Part shown: positions 6,563 to 62,878 of the stretch, in pieces
How positions within the stretch are numbered: position 1 is the first letter of the stretch
Layout of the letters: every line of letters starts with the position of its first letter
Assembly: GCA_951406725.2 (NCBI GenBank)
Contig: OX597819.1
Location: forward strand, 54,312,001-54,376,000
Length of the DNA stretch: 64,000 nucleotides
DNA from: Octopus vulgaris
Taxonomy: Eukaryota
Direction of reading: 5' to 3'
Made by a program: the position numbers and the translations under genes
The notes under the pieces: model-generated
Databases searched by the model: none
What the model was told of the DNA's origin: nothing
Seen by the model: only the letters and a program-made list of their open reading frames with translations

Positions 6563-6580
6563 CCTGTGAAGAAGAATATG
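6563..6580 (+). CDS. APBA: 18-nt microexon PVKKNM
   Basis: T-tract + gtctcttAG | cctgtgaagaagaatatg | GTGAGA. Symmetric phase 0/0 with no stop. Confidence 0.7.
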
Positions 6581-12766: not shown

Positions 12767-12797
12767 GCTGAGAAAAGGCGATCACGTGCTAAGGAGG
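12767..12797 (+). CDS. APBA: 31-nt exon AEKRRSRAKE(g)
   Basis: Acceptor ttgtcttttcAG and donor GTGAGT. It converts phase 0 to phase 1, exactly as exon 22979 requires (g+tt = Val). Confidence 0.8.
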
Positions 12798-22978: not shown

Positions 22979-23130
22979 TTTGCATAAATGATCCGGACAA
23001 CCCTGCAGTATTGATAGAAGGTGTGTTATTTCGAGCACGTTACCTTGGTTCTACACAATTAATATCTGAAGGGCAACCATCAAAACCAATGAGAATGATA
23101 CAAGCACAAGAAGCTGTTGGACGAATTAAG
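22979..23130 (+). CDS. APBA: X11/Mint/LIN-10 PTB domain exon: VCINDPDNPAVLIEGVLFRARYLGSTQLISEGQPSKPMRMIQAQEAVGRIK
   Basis: The sequence GVLFRARYLGSTQL...RM.QAQEAV.RIK is characteristic of the X11/Mint PTB domain. Acceptor tttggcAG, donor AAG|GTGAAG. Confidence 0.96.
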
Positions 23131-24869: not shown

Positions 24870-26030
24870 TTCTCAAGCATACTGTGTAAGAAGTTTGCTT
24901 CCATACCTCATCGTTTCATGTTCACTCCCACTGTGTGGTATCTTGGACAAGTATCTCCTGCTATAGCCTCAGCCTTGTAAATAGATTTGGTTGATGAAAA
25001 GTGAAAAGAAGCCTATTATATGTATGTGTGTTATATATAGATTTTCTCTTCATAAACTATGATTGTCTTTCAATCCCCTTCCCTGCCCTCTACTCAGGTT
25101 TTCGCCAGTCACTACAATCCCCACTCCCTACTTGCGCCTTCTTGGCAACACTTGACTGTGTATATTACTACCTTCGTACTTCCCTTTTCTTTACCATCAC
25201 ATCTACGCTTTGATCCTTGTTACTTGTGAGTATACACTGGCACTTCCTTTCTCTCTTACATTTTTGCTATTTCCTACTCTCTCTTTCTTTCTTACCCTTG
25301 CTCTTCCCTCTGGCTGGGTAGTCACATATCTCCTCTCTAGCAGCATATATATATCTGCCCTCATTCTTGGTCACTCTCTTTCTGTCTCTCCCTGGGTAAC
25401 CATGTACCTTCTCTATAGCAAGACACTTATTTCTCTGTCACTCTCTAACATTTCATCCTCTGACATGGGTTCCCCTCCTCAAATGCACCTGCCCCTCTCA
25501 TGATTCCTTGTCTTGCAAGCTACTTGGTGACCCTGCCAGTGCTGGTGCCACATAAAAAGCATGCAGTCCACACTGTAAAGTGGTTATTTGGAGGGGCATC
25601 CAGCTGTAAAAATCATGCGAAAACTAACCTCACCTGTGCTAGTACGACATAAAAAGCACTGAGTCCACTCTAAAAAGTGGTTGGTGTTAGGAAAGGCATC
25701 CGACTATAAAAGCCTTGTCAAAACAGACAGTAGTATAGGGTAGTTTTTCTACATGGCCAGCTTCTGTGAGCCGTCCTGCTCATGCATGCATGCATGGAAG
25801 ATGGATGTTAAACAATGATGATGATATATATAATTATGTGTGTGTGTGTCTTTATGTTTGGCCCCTGCCATCTCCTGACAACCAGTGTTGGATTTTTTAT
25901 ATTCCCATAACTTAGTGGTTTGGTAGAAGATACTGATAGAATGAGTACTAGACTTAATAGATAAGTACTGGGGTTGATTTGTTTTGCCCAAACCCTATCT
26001 GGTCAGTACCCAGTGACTGAAACGAGATAA
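24870..26030 (+). mobile_element. Nested SINE composite (tRNA-head SINE interrupted by an RTE-tail SINE)
   Basis: Head aagaagtttgcttcc...cccactgtgtggtatcttggacaag. RTE-like tail ggtgttaggaaaggcatcc...gatgttaaacaatgatgatgat. 3' part gataagtactggggttgattt. These motifs recur across the window. Confidence 0.6.
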
Positions 26031-26541
26031 ATTTCTTGAAATTATCTCCCCCTCCCTTTGAGCTCTGCTGAGAATTACTTTTGGCTTTTTACTTTTTCTC
26101 CAACTAAAAGGCAAAATGGTAAACAGTTTTTGCTGCATCATTCAAAATATAACTTTTAACAAATATATGTAAATCCATGCCATCGTTCCACTACAGTTAT
26201 TTCCCTTAGTTCATATTTTTGTTTTATTTCACAGGTATTCTATTAACAAACACTATTATAAAATACAAATGCATTCTAGTTTCAACTTGGAATTGATAAT
26301 TCTTGTATTTGTATCTCAGTATCATAACCAGTTAACCATTTCACAATGTATTTACTACTTTTAGTTAAAATGAATTGAAACTGTTATCCAGCTTTCTTGA
26401 TACTTACTGACATTATGGCATATGCATTATTTTGAGAGAATCTAAAATGTATAATCTTTTAATATAAATGTATTTTTCAGAAAAAAACCCATTTAAAAAT
26501 ATATTATAGTATAATTTTGAGATTTTCCTATCTTAAAAGGG

Positions 26542-27279: not shown

Positions 27280-27401
27280 AGGAAACTCTATAAAGGTAGT
27301 CAATAGCTTCTGCTATATTGGTAACCTAACTGGCAGTGAAAGAGGATGCTCAGCAAGCATAGTAGCTAGAGTAAGAACAGAGTGGAAAAAGTTCAGGAAG
27401 C

Positions 27402-27435
<34 letters not shown>

Positions 27436-28025
27436 GCTGGTGACATGAGAAGTCTCTTCTTTGGTGAAGGGTAGATTGTATGGAGCTTGTGTACAAAGTG
27501 CAATGCTGCATTGTAGGGAGACATGAGGACTTAGTGCTGAGGATGTGCAAGTTTGGACAGAAATGAAGCAAGTATACTCTACTGTCTGAATAATGTTAAG
27601 ACACCTATATCTGACCTTCTGTTCATACTGTAAACTTTCATCACCTTGCACACTGCCAGTTGAGGGGTCCAGTCTTGCTAGTTACTCAGTGACCTTGCTG
27701 CTGCTGGGACCATATAAATAATGTTCAGTACACTCTGTAAAGTGGTTGGCATTAGGATGGGCATCCAACCCTAGAAACTGTGCCAAAGCAGACAGTTTGG
27801 TGCAGTCTTTTGACTTGCTAGTTACTATCAAACTGTCCAACCCATGCCAGAATGGAAAGAGGACATTAAATGATGATTATGATGAATGGTGCGGTATAAA
27901 CGAGTTGAGGAAAACTAAGTATAAGAGCAATCAGTCATACTGTGCAAGAATGGCGACCAGATGAGTTTGGACATGTAGTTTGGATGATAAAAGATGGGTA
28001 AAAAAGTGCCAGGAGATCCTAGTAG
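27280..28025 (+). pseudogene. RTE-clade LINE ORF C-terminal fragment, interrupted by a SINE and (TTA)n
   Basis: Translates to NSFCYIG..GCSASIVARVRTEWKKFRKL..VKGRLYGACVQSAML and later FGHV..DKRWVKKCQEI. Confidence 0.75.
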
Positions 28026-28700
28026 ATCTACTTCCAGAGAATTTTCTTAGTATTTGAGAGAATTAATTTTCTGTGTGCTTATTGTGTTTAATGCTCCTGC
28101 ACATCTGCTGTATACAAAGTCTACCTTCTCTATTATTGTACCTGTGATTTTACTATACTTCTTGTGAGTTCATAGTTTATACTTCATGGAATTCCTATCA
28201 TGCCCATTTCTGCATATCAAACAGGGCCATTTCCCTGATGGTAGCAGAGTCCTGTCTTCTTTCTTACTAATATGTTAATCTTTGCTACATTTGAGGTTAC
28301 AATTCCAGGTTTTGCCTCCATGTCTGGAATTTCTTCTAATTCTGCCACAGATTCAAGATATGAGAACTAGGTCAATAGCATACAGGAGTTCCTATGAACA
28401 ACTGGTTTCTGACTCCTCTGCTGTAGCTTGGAGGATTATGACAAATAGAAAGAAATGAAAACTGAGCCCTGGTGGACTCTTACCTGCATGCTAAATTTAT
28501 TGCTGTTCTTGTTGACTCTTACCTTGATGATGGCATCCCTGTATATGGCTTGTACTACCCTCATCTATTCCTAGCTTCTTTAGTGATCACCAGTTTACAA
28601 AGCATGGAATCCTGTAAAAAGGCTTTCTCTAGCACACTGGCAATGAATGCTAGGTACTCTGGCTTACTACTAGCTAAATACTTTTACTGCAGTCGTTTCA
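28026..28700 (-). pseudogene. RTE-clade LINE reverse transcriptase fragment
   Basis: Minus strand gives LEKAF, HQGSV, LFVIILQA and ELLYAIDLVLI, which are degenerate RT domain 3-5 motifs. Confidence 0.75.
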
Positions 28701-28812: not shown

Positions 28813-29230
28813 ATAAAGATATATCCCTGTGTCTATGTTTTATATAAAGATATGTTGCATAGGTGCGAAATTGCATTGATCTTTTGGCCAATAACTGATA
28901 AGGATTTGGCAACCTTCTCTGTCTGTTTTCCATTTGTTTGTGCATTTATTATATTCTTTTTAACTTACATATATCTTGTATTAAGATATATGTATATATA
29001 TTTTTCATAAAATCATATATCTTAGGTGTATGTATTTCCATCTAAAAATGTATATTGTCCATATATATGTATATATGTTTATGTGTGAGAGAGTGAGTGT
29101 GAATTAGATGCAATCTTGTGCTATGTGTGTATATGTTTAAGTTTTATTTATCCTGATGAACTCTTTTTAATTTAATGCATTTTAACATTTCCTCCTTTTC
29201 TCCCTCACTTCTTTCATATTACATTTTTAG

Positions 29231-29236
29231 GCTTCG
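29231..29236 (+). CDS. APBA: 6-nt microexon (Ala-Ser) in the PTB loop
   Basis: Pyrimidine-rich AG-free zone of about 88 nt with a ttttaac branch-like motif, then tttttAG | GCTTCG | GTGAGT. Phase 0/0. Confidence 0.75.
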
Positions 29237-30799
29237 GTGAGTTATCTCATTCTTCCTTTTTTGATATTGTCTGTACAATAGTTGTAAAACATCTCACCCA
29301 TATATTTAGTTACTACTTGCTATTTATTTCTTTACTCGCTGTAATTTAAGAAAGCAATATTCAGTATTTTTCATTTAAAGCTATTTGGATGTAGAAGAAT
29401 CTTCCTTTTTTTTTTCTTTTTTTTTTTTTGGAGAATACAGTTAATATTTATTTTAATATAATTAATAAAAATACAAAAAGAAAAAATTCAAATATATTTG
29501 CGTTGTAACTGATAACTTAGCATTACCTTGTTGGAATCCTGCCACCTTCAATTTTTATTATACTATAATATAAACACTACCTTTAAGTCTTCCAATATAT
29601 TTTGAAAATTTTAATTTGATTTTAAATTGACTCTGGACAGGAAAAAAAAAAGGAAGATATTCTTATCATTTAGAATCATTTCATTTGAGTCTCTGAATTA
29701 TTTGTTGTGTGTGTGTGAAATATTATTTCTGTTGAATTTTCACTTAGTCTTAATTAGTTGTTTGTAAATTTTAAGGTCATCTTAAAAATGCTTGAAACAA
29801 ACATTCCATTCCTGGTTTTAATTTTCCATCACTTTATACTTGTATAGTTGTTTGGAACATAAGATGCATTCTCTCCTCTGTTTAGATTCTGAATTTAAAG
29901 TTTTTACATTTATATACTTATGCACAAATCAGATGACTTTATGCATAAATCAGAAGTTGTGCTTATGCAAGAAATCAGTTGTTTTATACTTGTTGTAAAC
30001 ATATTGCATTCTTCTGAAATTACCATTTTGATATGTATTTCCTCAATACACTAAAATATTTTATTTTGCTAAATAAGTGAAGTGTTTAGGGTCATGTAAA
30101 AAATATTTCTATGGCAATTTTAGTGAAGGAAAGTTACTTTTTCTTTTCTATCAAACTCATATCTGTTTATACATCTGTAAGTATGAGTAACTGAAGTTTT
30201 ATCTGTTTATCATAACATTCAAACTGGAAACCTTCATATTGTGAAACACTACTAGTTGTTGATCTTTGTTATTTTTTCTCATTTATTCAGGAAATGCATT
30301 ATTGCTTATTCATTTTGTATGTGTGTGTGTAATGTATGTGTGTTCTGTTGTTTTTCTGGCTATATAATTTAAATTTATTACCAATACAGGAAAAAGCCTG
30401 TTTCTAACCCAGAAATATGGTTCTTTCATTGTATTTTATAAAGCACCAGCTAAGCGATCATGTGTGTATGTATTATGTATACATACTAATTTGTGTGTAT
30501 CTATGTATATTTTTCTGTGCAGAATTGAAGTCAGTTACTAGAAAAGTGACAAGGATTCTTTGAGTCAAGATACATCCTGCAATTTGTGAATATGAGAATG
30601 AGTTAATAAATGCATATATGTGGGTGTATATCTGGATGTGTGTGTATGTGTGTTTACTATATGTACATATAAGATTGTGTATATATGTTTATTCCAAGAA
30701 ATTTAAATGAAGAATCTTTAGAATGTTTTGCACATCTTCACTGTATCCACTAATTAATTGGATTTGAAGGGTGTGAGTGAGTTTGCTTTGTTCTAGCAC

Positions 30800-32193: not shown

Positions 32194-33582
32194 CACTGGT
32201 CAACAAAAATAAACTATTTTTTCTTCAGAGATGCATCCAATTGCATCCTTGGCAGGAATTCTAAGTCTTTCTTTAGCATTTTTGGACTTTAACAGTTTCT
32301 TTTATCTCATTTTTTAAAAATATTTACAGTATTTTAAATAGCATTTTATGCAGAATTTGTATATCACTTGAACTGAAACAGCCTACAGTTGATTAATTCA
32401 AACATAATTAATTTTAACCTTACTTTTATATGGTAGATTCAATTAAATACACTACACATGTTTGTGGAGAATATACATTATAATGCCTCCATTCCAAAAT
32501 CCCTGCTATCAAGTTTCTATTACATAACTATATTGATGGAATCATTCTTCTTACTCTTTGCTAATGGCATCAAGATTTTCTTGAAAGAAATTTAATGAGA
32601 CTATTAGAAGTGTAAGGTGGTTGGTGTTAGAAAGGGCATTTAGTTGTAAAAACCTTGCCAAAGCAGACACTGAAGCCTGGTGCTGTCTTCTGCCTAACCA
32701 GCCCCTGTCAAACTATCCCGCCCATGCCAGAATGGAAAATGGATGTTAAATGATGATGATGATTACACCCATTTCTTTATAGGTGTCAAGGAGTTTCTCA
32801 ATCACACTGCTATATCCAGGGAATTTATTTCTCAGAAAGTTTTCATATAACCACTCAAAAGCTTTCCAAGCTGGTAATTCCAGTGTCTTGAGCATTTGTT
32901 CAAATTCAGTACTTTTTAAAACCCCATTGATCTGCAGCCCCACAAAAGTCCACTCTTTGCACTCACATTTGGAAATTTTCCTTGGAATGGTATTCAAATC
33001 CTTTTGAATTGATTTTACCCACTGTTTTTACAAAATCTTTCATTAAATTAAATATAATATGGATACATGGTAAAAATATCTTCTTGGGGTCAACTAAGAG
33101 GACAGACTTGAAACTGGTTATTCATGGGACACATGGTGACCTTATTGGCCAGTTGCATTTAACAATGATCTTTTGTTACATGACTCCATTGTCTGTGGCA
33201 AAGCATTGATTGTTTCTTAATTTTTTTTTTTTAATCATTCAAATAGTCCACATGATCAAACAGTGCAGATTTTAAGTGGTACCCACTGCTTTTCTTGGTC
33301 TCCTATACAGCAACCAAACTATATCTAGTATATATATAGATCTCTAGTGATAGTTTAACTGTGTTCTGGATGATTTTTACATTTATGAGGAATGTTGATT
33401 AAATGGTAATGGTCTGATTGACTATTCTAAAGAATAGAAAATATTTCAAAATATATCTGTAAAAAAATACAATTGGTCTAATCTCAAAAACTTTGTTCTT
33501 CTGAAAAACTGAAGATAGCTTCAAAAGTGCTTTCTGATTCACTTAAATATACTCCCCAATAGAAATTCTTTGTTGACCAGTG
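32194..33582 (-). mobile_element. Chapaev3-like (CMC) DNA transposon relic with transposase pseudogene
   Basis: TIRs cactggtcaacaaa / tttgttgaccagtg. Minus strand LVDPKKIFLPCIHIIFNLMKDFVK..FVGLQI..AWKAF..FLRNK resembles the LPPLHIKLGLMKxFVK..FVGPQI family. A SINE is inserted at ~32610-32763. No clean TSD. Confidence 0.7.
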
Positions 33583-35033
33583 TTTACTGTTGCAAATGCT
33601 TATAATCATCAAAGCCAATCATAATATATTCCTCTAACACTTATAATACTCTCTTTCTCTGTACTCTTTTTTTCAATCTATACACACACTTACAGATTAT
33701 CATTACAAGTGTTTTCAAGTGAACATGTTTCTAAAATTATTAACTACTTCATGACTAGTATTGGAAATATTCTAAACAAAGAAGCCTTAAATCTAAGATA
33801 TATATTTGTGAGGAACTTTCATACTCAAGTCAAAAATTCTCTTTTGCATTAACATTTTGTGAAATTTTACCAAGAATATGGTAAAATTGGTTTATCCTTT
33901 ATAATCCATAAATTTTCTCTAAGAGTCAATTCTATTACTATTTGGTAATTGATAGCCATATATATGTTCTTAAATTAAGTGTCCATTATTTATTAATGGA
34001 CCTCTTTTATTTTTTCAAAAGAGTTTTACCAAGGTTCTGTTCGCTGTTTAACTCTCAGTGTGACTTTTAAGATTCACATATTTTTAGAATATGTGGTACC
34101 TTTCTTAATTTCCTAATGTGTTGTTAGTTTTCTTCTTTTATTTCCCTTTATCATTTCACTCTTTAATACAACCCTTTTCATTACATGTTCTGCTCAATAC
34201 TGAGAGAAAAGAGCTTTTTGTTTCTTTTCTGTAATTGAACAGCATGACCTTTTCCCCTCCCTTCAATAATTCTGTAGTAGTATCATCACCATGGCATGTA
34301 TCTGGCAACCTAACCACATAGCCTAGTTTTGATTTCCATTTTGGAGATTTTCTTTTACTTACCATTGATATTGTTCTTGGAAAAGGCATGAGCATGACAA
34401 TTTTCTGTTTTCCATCTCCCACTAAATCTTAAATTTCATGCCTAATAATTTTTAGGAAAGTTGCATACTATTTTATCATTAGTATTTAGAAATCATTAGT
34501 TATAATTCTTAACTTAATGTCTTGTTGCATTTATTTATTTCTCTGTATGTAATGAATTCAATTCTCTTCAAGGTCAACTTCACTTTTCATCCCTTTGAGT
34601 TGATAAAATCTACTATGCTGCTTTCCTTAAAACTCTAGTCTTGCTGGAAATTTATAAACTACCACTAAAGGTTACTGAAAGCACTGGCTAATAGATTCTG
34701 TTGTGCGATAGATTAAATACTTTAAGGTATTTAATTGCATTCAATTATGTTCTGTGAAAGTGCAAGGCCTAGTGATTAGGGGTGAAAGTGCATGGCCTGG
34801 TGGTTAGGGTGTGTACTCAATCAAGTCCATGGTTTTGATTTTCTGACCAGGTGATGCATTTCATTTCACCTTGCTCCAGTCCACTCAGTTGTAAATGAGT
34901 TCAAACAATAGCTGAAAAGTTAACCCTGTGGTGGACCAGCATCTCATTCAGGGAGTGGTGGTGTTGTAATCTCGTGCATTTATAAGCCATGGGAAACTGG
35001 TTAAGCTCTGACTTTGAGTCATAGGGCTCACGA

Positions 35034-35065
<32 letters not shown>

Positions 35066-37539
35066 CGCCCCCCCCCATATGTTCTCAGTTCAAATTTCAT
35101 TTGATATAACATGTACTTGTCAAGTAGTGCATTTGACCTAATCTTCTATAACCTTAAAATTCATGGCCTTGTGCCTATATAAAAAGTCAAAATTATACAT
35201 AAAGAATAAAGAAATAATTGCTATCCTAAAGTTGTACTAGCACAAAAAGTTGAAGGCCATTATTTGTAGGTTTTGTAATATGTACAAGGCTTTTTACTTT
35301 TAATCAATTTTAAATATGGCTGAAATAAAATTCATTGTAAATTAAAAGTTTGTTATATTTAGTGTATGTTATACATAGGCACATTAACCACAGTACCTAA
35401 TGTAAAAAAAAAAAAAAAAATAACAGCTGCTCTGACTAAATGCAAAGAAAATATTGTTGAGTCTATTGACAAAACAGAAAAGACAGAGCACAATGGCTGT
35501 GATATTTAGATGTAAAATTATTGACTTCATAGTAATAGATTCAAACTTTACTGTCCAGTTTCCATTCCTTGTTGCTAATTTTATACAAAGCCCCTAACAA
35601 TACTTGGTTCCATTTACCTGGCTGTCAAAATAAGTATTGTTCCAACTTTGTTCAGTAGCAGAAAGTACATTTAAATATAAAATTAAATGTTCTCATAACA
35701 CTCATCTTATTGATATCAACAATATGATTAATATTAAAGAATAGGTTTTCAGTTTCACTTGAATTATGTTCTTGGTTAAGTTAAGGTGTGCAGCGAACCA
35801 ATGAATGGCTTGCTGGAAACCCGTTGGAAACCAATAACATTGTTGTTCACAAAATACAGTATGTAATAATAATAAAAATAGAAAATGTGAAGCACCATCA
35901 TCTCACTTAACTTATGTACACACACACTTGAGATTTGATATTTCCTCAAAAGTCATCTCTTATTAACTCGGCTGTTTTACTTCTCTAAACATATGCATAG
36001 GATGGTGAATTCTTTTGACAATGAGCATTCAGTGTTGTTTAATCAACTGCATTCTTATTTGTGAAATAAACTTGCAAGTGATAGAGTATTCCATAGACAT
36101 ATATATCGTTACTATAATTCTCATGTCAGATCAGCATGTTAGTCTATGACAAGGAGGATCTTTGAATTACATGTGCTGTCAGAGAAAGAGTGAAATTGAC
36201 AAAGAGAAATAAGAATCAGCTCAATATTGAATTATTACTTTTATTTATCAATATTGAAAGGATGAAAGGTAAAACTGATCTCAATAAGATTTTAACACAG
36301 AGAGCCAGAATGAATTGAACAAGGCAACCCAGCTAATGACATTCTTATGACTTTGATAATTTAAAACCTCAAACTGAGGATACAAATAGACAAATAAAGA
36401 GAAAGCAAAACAATTTTATAAGTTTCCCCTTATTAATACAGTTTGTAGTGGATGTCCTGTTTAGGCAACAGATTTTCAATGAATCTGTCTGTGACCAACT
36501 TTCCAGTTCTAATCAATATTGCTTTGCAAACACATTACTTTGCTTTCCAGTTCTGAAACCTTACAAATTTGACTCCTAAAACCTAAGTAATTATTACTGA
36601 CATTGTTTGCTAATATTTTTACTGTTGATCTCATTAAGTCTCATGCTTAAAAATTTGTTTTAAGCTTATTTCATGAATTCATAGTTTATCAGTTGACAAT
36701 AGAATCTTCATTAATTAAAGATGAAAATGTTAGGATCCTCATATTAAGTCTGTAAGTTTTTATGTCTTTTAATTAGGAAAGAAAATATACCCTGCTTCTT
36801 TATCTCAGTCATACATTCAAGAAACTAAATGAATGATGACAAATTTTTGTCAATTTGCTTCTTGCAAATCTTGTCTTTTCTTTCATATAATATTGCAGTT
36901 AAATGGTTTATTTTAATTTTTCATGTTATTAAACATTTCTTCTTTTTTTAAATTTGTTTATTACCTCAATATAAGCTTAGTTGGGTTCTGAGCTTTTTAG
37001 TTCTATCAATTATCCCTTCAGTTGTAGTAACAGATTATTTTTTTGTTTTATACCAACTATTAAATTGCAACTGCTTTTATTTGCATCAGAACTCAGTTAA
37101 ATATATTTTAGAGACATTCATATGAAGCTGCTTTGCAAAACTGTCGGACTATCAATATGTAATTTTTATGCATACAACTGATAATTCATTCTTCACTCAG
37201 AATACCTTCATAGACTATTAAAATAGTGATAAAATATACTATTTTAATAATTTATGTAACTCCTCCCACAAAAATAAATTATTTTCAAGGAATTTGTTAC
37301 TTTTCAAATTATTTTGTAATTCTGAATGCCTAGTAAGGTATGTATTAAATATTTGGGTTAGCAATTAAACAAACTATTAGCTAACCTATTGTTTTTCTTG
37401 AAACTGGGCTATCTTTTAGTTGATAGTTCAAATTGATTACCTGACCATGGGCATTCTGGTCTAGATGAGAAACATCAACTTTTGTCTATTATTACTGGTT
37501 ATTCTCTAGCCTATTATTCTCCTTCATTCTCCTGGCCAG

Positions 37540-37584
37540 GGTGGTGATAAAGAGCTATCTTCAGTGCCAGCTGAGAGTTATGAG
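37540..37584 (+). CDS. APBA: 45-nt cassette exon GGDKELSSVPAESYE
   Basis: ttctccttcattctcctggccAG | 45 nt open frame, GC-richer than flanks | GAG/GTAGGT. Phase 0/0. Confidence 0.65.
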
Positions 37585-45723: not shown

Positions 45724-45759
45724 ACTTTGGGCACTCTTCATTTTGGTAAACGATATCAG
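45724..45759 (+). CDS. APBA: 36-nt cassette exon TLGTLHFGKRYQ
   Basis: Long T-rich tract ending ttctacAG, 36 nt open frame, donor CAG|GTACCA. Phase 0/0. TGCATG (Rbfox motif) at 45853-45858. Confidence 0.7.
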
Positions 45760-62791: not shown

Positions 62792-62878
62792 GCTCCAGAG
62801 GGAGAAAACCAACCTAGTACTGAAGTAGATTTGTTTGTGTCCACTGAAAAAATCATGGTTCTCAATACAGATCTCCAG
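62792..62878 (+). CDS. APBA: X11/Mint PTB domain exon: APEGENQPSTEVDLFVSTEKIMVLNTDLQ
   Basis: Direct continuation of ..EAVGRIK in X11/Mint proteins (APEGE.QP.TEVDLF.ST). Acceptor ttatttAG, donor CAG|GTAATA, 87 nt, phase 0/0. Missed by the ORF track. Confidence 0.96.

Follow-up and report, generated by a model that had tools for sequence, protein, structure and literature searches.

An optional six-nucleotide exon in the PTB domain of an octopus X11/Mint gene, with two-residue inserts at the same junction in other molluscs and in arthropods

The window (the whole 64-kb stretch of Octopus vulgaris DNA analyzed here) contains part of a gene of the X11/Mint/LIN-10 (APBA) family of trafficking adaptors, whose products have a PTB domain followed by two PDZ domains. 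Proteins matching an octopus exon of this gene carry both PF00640 and PF00595, and rat Mint2 aligns over PTB-PDZ-PDZ (E value 1e-150); the exons encoding the PDZ domains fall outside the window. The features under consideration are as follows.

22979..23130, + strand: upstream coding exon with the start of the PTB domain, ending in Arg-Ile-Lys, phase 0 (Pfam PID match)
29142..29228, + strand: AG-free zone of 87 nt (read from the sequence)
29231..29236, + strand: optional microexon of 6 nt encoding Ala-Ser, phase 0-0, AG acceptor and GTGAGT donor (contigs of runs X5, X6 and X17)
37540..37584, + strand: optional exon of 45 nt, 15 acidic and Ser-rich amino acids, phase 0-0 (exact edges in contigs)
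45724..45759, + strand: optional exon of 36 nt, 12 amino acids, phase 0-0 (spliced to the 45-nt exon in X6 and X17; X5 skips it)
62792..62878, + strand: constitutive PTB exon, 29 amino acids (tblastn; joined directly in X5)

Three optional in-frame exons of 6, 45 and 36 nt therefore share one 39.7-kb interval, the 6-nt exon being the first. The introns separating the five exons measure 6100, 8303, 8139 and 17032 nt, in that order. Because all three optional exons are phase 0-0, the insert can range from 0 to 29 residues. The upstream exon is 100% identical over 47 amino acids to Octopus X11/Mint proteins, its product also matches the solved Mint1/2 structures, and contigs of runs X7 and X11 carry it in one piece. 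The 36-nt exon is kept in gastropods, bivalves, cephalopods and the nemertean Lineus, and is better conserved than the 45-nt exon, whose counterparts vary among mollusc groups.

Splicing was assessed on assembled contigs from 6 of the 24 listed sequencing runs, which were guessed to be RNA; such contigs reveal joins, not expression levels. Junctions were read on a clean 461-nt stretch at the 45-nt exon in four runs. In three of these (X5, X6 and X17, representing three studies and three organism labels) the end of the upstream exon, the six bases and the 45-nt exon are joined, so that the junction k-mer suggested in the preliminary description, the upstream exon end followed by GCTTCG, is present in three of the four runs. 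Since these joins span kilobase introns precisely at AG/GT edges, the contigs can hardly derive from DNA. Downstream of the 45-nt exon, X6 and X17 continue into the 36-nt exon and X5 passes directly to position 62792. The fourth run, X11, lacks a contig over the 45-nt exon, though this does not prove absence. A comparison over 15 kb was dominated by repeats and listed no exon junction. Intronic high-copy repeats lie at about 25300-26300, 27300-28300, 32300-32800 and 34800-35300, with contig depths of hundreds to thousands in all four runs compared.

The exon is skipped as well as included. The Octopus sinensis models P0124, P0005 and P0127 do not contain it, and one X6 contig ends two letters past 23131, the point from which the 6-nt exon differs in sequence from the constitutive one, which hints at the presence of both forms in that run. 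RefSeq isoform X11 of O. sinensis (P0129) has Ala-Ser by itself, and P0124 has no insert at all. The cluster has 23 O. sinensis models, and the 15 listed represent six of the eight possible exon combinations; the remaining two are supplied by O. vulgaris P0112 and run X5. These RefSeq combinations are gene models rather than full-length transcripts, and those of O. sinensis may come from this same assembly. The RefSeq isoforms of O. sinensis LOC115212775 (for example, XP_036359905.1, X11) thus already model the 6-nt exon, alone and combined, although they are automatic and say nothing on its regulation, conservation or function.

A six-base segment between splice-like motifs could be a chance intronic pattern or an alternative splice site of an adjacent exon. 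When the 39.7-kb interval was resampled 200 times with a local Markov model, a mean of 1.7 YAG-6nt-GTRAG sites arose; requiring an AG-free zone of at least 80 nt lowered the mean to 0.025. The chance reading is contradicted by the junction-spanning contigs from three studies and by the three different downstream exons that follow the Ala-Ser dipeptide. An alternative splice site is contradicted by the genomic position of the six bases, which adjoin neither flanking exon. Both explanations are refuted, with a vanishingly small probability left to them, and the 6-nt exon of octopus X11/Mint is a genuine, optionally spliced exon, as initially proposed.

All elements of a canonical microexon (3-27 nt, with AG/GT edges) are present: the acceptor AG at 29229-30, GCTTCG at 29231-36 and the GTGAGT donor at 29237-42. 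GCTTCG is the sole AG-flanked and GT-flanked 6-nt site coding for Ala-Ser in 23131-62791. The AG-free pyrimidine tract, given earlier as about 88 nt, is indeed there, although it measures 87 nt and is densely pyrimidine (90%) only at 29187-29217, the share across the whole zone being 76%. It is the longest among six acceptors examined (28-59 nt for the other five), and AG-to-AG gaps of at least 88 nt make up 45 of 3366 in the window (1.3%). Among 69 YAG-(3-27 nt)-GTRAG sites on both strands, the 6-nt exon alone combines an AG-free zone of at least 40 nt with at least 75% pyrimidine. The branch-like TTTTAAC pointed out earlier is also present, with its A at 29185 (-46); however, it is one of eight yUnAy matches within the AG-free zone, with candidate branch adenines at -75, -56, -46 and -24, and so the branch point is not fixed.

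The preliminary description saw the usual architecture of neural microexons here and, on condition that insects have the insert at the same place, named the exon a candidate SRRM/eMIC target. SRRM3/4- and Srrm234(eMIC)-dependent neural microexons resemble the octopus exon in being 3-27 nt long and symmetric, with a long AG-free zone, a UC-rich tract, a strong donor and a location in an interaction domain. Fly eMIC targets are described as having an extended AG-free zone, a UC-rich tract and, close to the acceptor, UGC (10.1101/2021.02.24.432780). This last element is where the octopus exon differs: UGC occurs only at -55, -112 and -122, and the nearest copy lies upstream of the pyrimidine tract rather than between tract and AG. 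In human SRRM3/4 targets, UGC lies between branch point and AG in 74-79% and is lacking in 21-26%, and it is not strictly needed according to the part of 10.1101/2024.09.17.613571 available. The X11L gene of Drosophila contains DmeEX0007022, a 6-nt, eMIC-dependent, pan-neuronal exon (PMC8797185 Table S2). This exon belongs to the same gene family, has the same length and is likewise frame-preserving, and it is likely to be the one encoding a two-residue insert that insects carry at the same PTB junction. The insect dipeptide is Ala-Leu and the octopus one Ala-Ser. For the place of the fly exon in its protein, no match came from the ExOrthist supplements (PMC8379844) or from the supplement excerpts of PMC11405698, to the extent these were available, and no Drosophila protein was among the matches of the protein searches. 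The Table S2 coordinates place the fly exon between introns of about 140 and 90 nt, compared with 6.1 and 8.3 kb in octopus. A small splice-site shift is also reported for fly X11L in the available parts of 10.1101/2023.03.23.533999 and PMC10484994. Mouse Apba2 has a 36-nt exon, MmuEX0005512, classed as 'Neural' and not eMIC-dependent in the same Table S2; it is taken as the PTB exon on account of its length.

Control by other factors, such as PTBP repression through the CU-rich tract or Nova binding to YCAY, or a lack of neuron specificity altogether, is possible, though well short of probable. YCAY occurs at -26, -17 and +11 of the exon, the tract is CU-rich, the nearest UGC lies upstream of it at -55, and Nova/pasilla shows the greatest overlap with fly eMIC targets in the part of PMC8797185 consulted. 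These YCAY and CU motifs are short, however; eMIC features include both a long AG-free zone and a UC-rich tract, UGC is dispensable in some human targets and the fly 6-nt exon depends on eMIC. The octopus exon would thus work like an eMIC-type microexon and is to be regarded as a candidate member of that class. It is likely to be neuron-enriched in octopus.

The insect Ala-Leu insert after Arg-Ile-Lys mentioned in the preliminary description is borne out by protein comparisons. Of 569 stored proteins, 386 have both anchors flanking the junction (these are counts of isoform models from many related species, not of independent events); 207 have no insert, 14 have exactly two amino acids and none has 1 or 3-10. 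Among 87 anchored matches to the octopus exon, 15 have an insert that opens with Ala-Ser, across cephalopods, gastropods and bivalves, as do 29 of 84 members of the protein cluster that includes the O. sinensis models. Carriers include Octopus, Haliotis, Lymnaea, Biomphalaria, Crassostrea, Pecten, Mizuhopecten and Ylistrum. Of a further set of 115 anchored proteins, 63 have an insert closed by Ala-Leu, the insect version; it stands alone in four of them (Halyomorpha, Cimex, Clastoptera and Aphis) and elsewhere follows a large optional exon. Chelicerates add a third version, Ser-Leu: of another 20 anchored members, 6 open the insert this way, from Limulus and Parasteatoda. At the protein level, Ala-Ser, Ala-Leu and Ser-Leu all occupy one PTB junction, with the same position, phase and length. 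An origin of Ala-Leu from an alternative acceptor or donor was rejected because no Leu codon ends in AG and because the dipeptide occurs after two different upstream exons. Also rejected was a conserved phosphorylation site, the octopus Ser being replaced by Leu in insects.

The insert is missing from all proteins of Lineus (0/11), Tubulanus (0/3), Mytilus (0/19), rotifers (0/23) and ticks (0/12), and likewise from the few models of Owenia, Helobdella, Lingula, Watersipora, Macrostomum and a chiton, the annelids being represented by two single gene models (Owenia and Helobdella). Exons of 6 nt are often missed by gene models, so their absence is weak evidence. The earlier suggestion that the microexon is ancestral to protostomes agrees with the shared position, seen at the protein level, of the two-residue insert in molluscs, insects and chelicerates but not with its absence from the 11 Lineus proteins and the two annelid models; given the nemertean, rotifer, mussel and tick models without it and the thin annelid sampling, protostome ancestry is no more than plausible. 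Judged from sequence, common ancestry of the octopus and arthropod 6-nt exons is likewise plausible, and slightly favored on balance.

A different history would have this intron tolerating inserts in general, with molluscs, arthropods and vertebrates gaining small exons separately and the 6-nt size recurring. This is quite possible, if somewhat on the weaker side of even: many unrelated inserts occur at this PTB junction, the dipeptides differ among lineages, and the insert is missing from Lineus, rotifers, Mytilus and ticks. In flies, eMIC exons turn over fast, with only nine common to all three other insects studied, and hotspots are invoked as well, according to the part of PMC8797185 available. 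A tolerant hotspot would not by itself lead one to expect that the sole very short insert is 2 amino acids long, as it is in 14 of the 386 proteins; moreover, the spider dipeptide sits before a larger optional exon, as in molluscs, a single base change turns the octopus Ser codon into Leu, and the missing models weigh little, as noted above.

Several insect and crustacean proteins (P0116, P0219, P0240, P0357 and P0454) have a large optional exon of 66-165 amino acids in the same interval. It ends in a diverged copy of the first strand and helix of the PTB domain. It looks like a tandem exon duplication, which could supply an alternative strand-helix unit.

The PTB domain of octopus with Ala-Ser was modeled with AlphaFold (mean pLDDT 80, 39 sequences), and the top fold matches of the model are Mint1/2 PTB domains. 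A helix at residues 32-48 ends on the microexon Ala and the Ser starts a loop; the insert is therefore predicted to lie between beta1 and beta2, where the helix ends and the loop begins. Vertebrate Mint1/Mint2 proteins have 11-12 residues at the same junction, and fish and bird models exist with and without them. Exon 6 of human Mint1/APBA1 (amino acids 495-505; Mint1 versus Mint1-826) resembles the octopus exons in being optional, in frame and at the identical junction (PMC3667844, available part); however, the one basic insert of vertebrate Mint is 11-12 amino acids long, and the three octopus exons, encoding 2, 15 and 12 amino acids, have no sequence likeness to it.

The human exon has a measured effect. 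Without exon 6, Mint1 binds Rab6-GTP through its PTB domain and gathers at the Golgi, while the full form does neither; APP binding is the same for both forms, and Mint3, which has no insert, binds Rab6 (all from the accessible part of PMC3667844). The PTB domain of worm LIN-10 binds RAB-6.2-GTP (PMC3255976, in part), and so the Rab6 contact exists in protostomes. As an 11-residue exon at this junction abolishes binding of human Mint1 to Rab6, a Golgi regulator, the octopus cassette is likely a loop-length switch. By analogy, the insert would remove Rab6-GTP binding, spare APP binding and move the adaptor off the Golgi. Its length would count more than residue identity, because the dipeptide is Ala-Ser, Ala-Leu or Ser-Leu depending on the lineage. 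Inclusion would rely on the long AG-free zone and the strong donor, probably helped by an eMIC-type Srrm234. The cassette would then add 2 to 29 loop residues and lower Rab6 coupling, most plausibly in neurons. The combined reading, a real optional exon, likely mainly neuronal, that places Ala-Ser at a predicted helix end and together with the 45- and 36-nt exons lengthens a loop likely to control Rab6, is about evenly balanced between right and wrong.

The weakest step is that two residues alone would suffice against Rab6 binding, which is doubtful; two small residues may not block Rab6, the human switch being an 11-residue basic insert. It is a substantial possibility, though still below an even one, that Ala-Ser has no effect on Rab6, either tuning another contact (lipid, autoinhibitory linker or other partner) or serving as a nearly neutral spacer carried along with the longer exons. 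The dipeptide residues are not conserved across phyla, several lineages appear to have no insert, and all three contigs with the 45-nt exon also have the 6-nt exon. Yet Ala-Ser is kept in three mollusc classes, is annotated alone in octopus (P0129) and scallop (P0209), and occupies the junction that gates Rab6 in human Mint1 (PMC3667844, available part).

The 6-nt exon itself is no discovery, because automatic annotation has it and its class is well known, and the fly counterpart is probably already catalogued. The match across phyla is unusual: the portion of PMC8797185 consulted describes fly and mammal eMIC target exons as almost wholly rewired, with four shared positions. Full-text searches of the open-licence literature gave no paper that treats the octopus exon or the match between molluscs and arthropods. 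With a 6-nt exon at this junction, molluscs, insects and chelicerates present either a candidate for a rare old target or a clean example of repeated hotspot gain. The measured Rab6 effect of the human exon and the fly exon that can be deleted make both origin and function directly testable. In its widest form, the hypothesis starts from a neural, eMIC-driven 6-nt microexon in the protostome ancestor, which molluscs and arthropods would have retained despite the reported near-total turnover of such exons and which would mark a loop that bilaterians recurrently use as a Mint-Rab6 splice switch, octopus having expanded it into a three-exon, eight-state dial for recruiting the adaptor to the Golgi; as a whole this is improbable.

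Two further small exons lie upstream of the PTB domain within this gene. A second optional microexon of 18 nt (6 amino acids; window positions 6563-6580, + strand), with AG and GTGAGA edges and an AG-free zone of merely 23 nt, is present in 12 and missing from 7 of 19 scorable octopus proteins (20 examined). Just 5' of the PTB exon, a 31-nt coding exon (12767-12797, + strand) includes a basic stretch; the ten residues of this exon are found in 19 of the 20 octopod proteins examined, the remaining one being partial.
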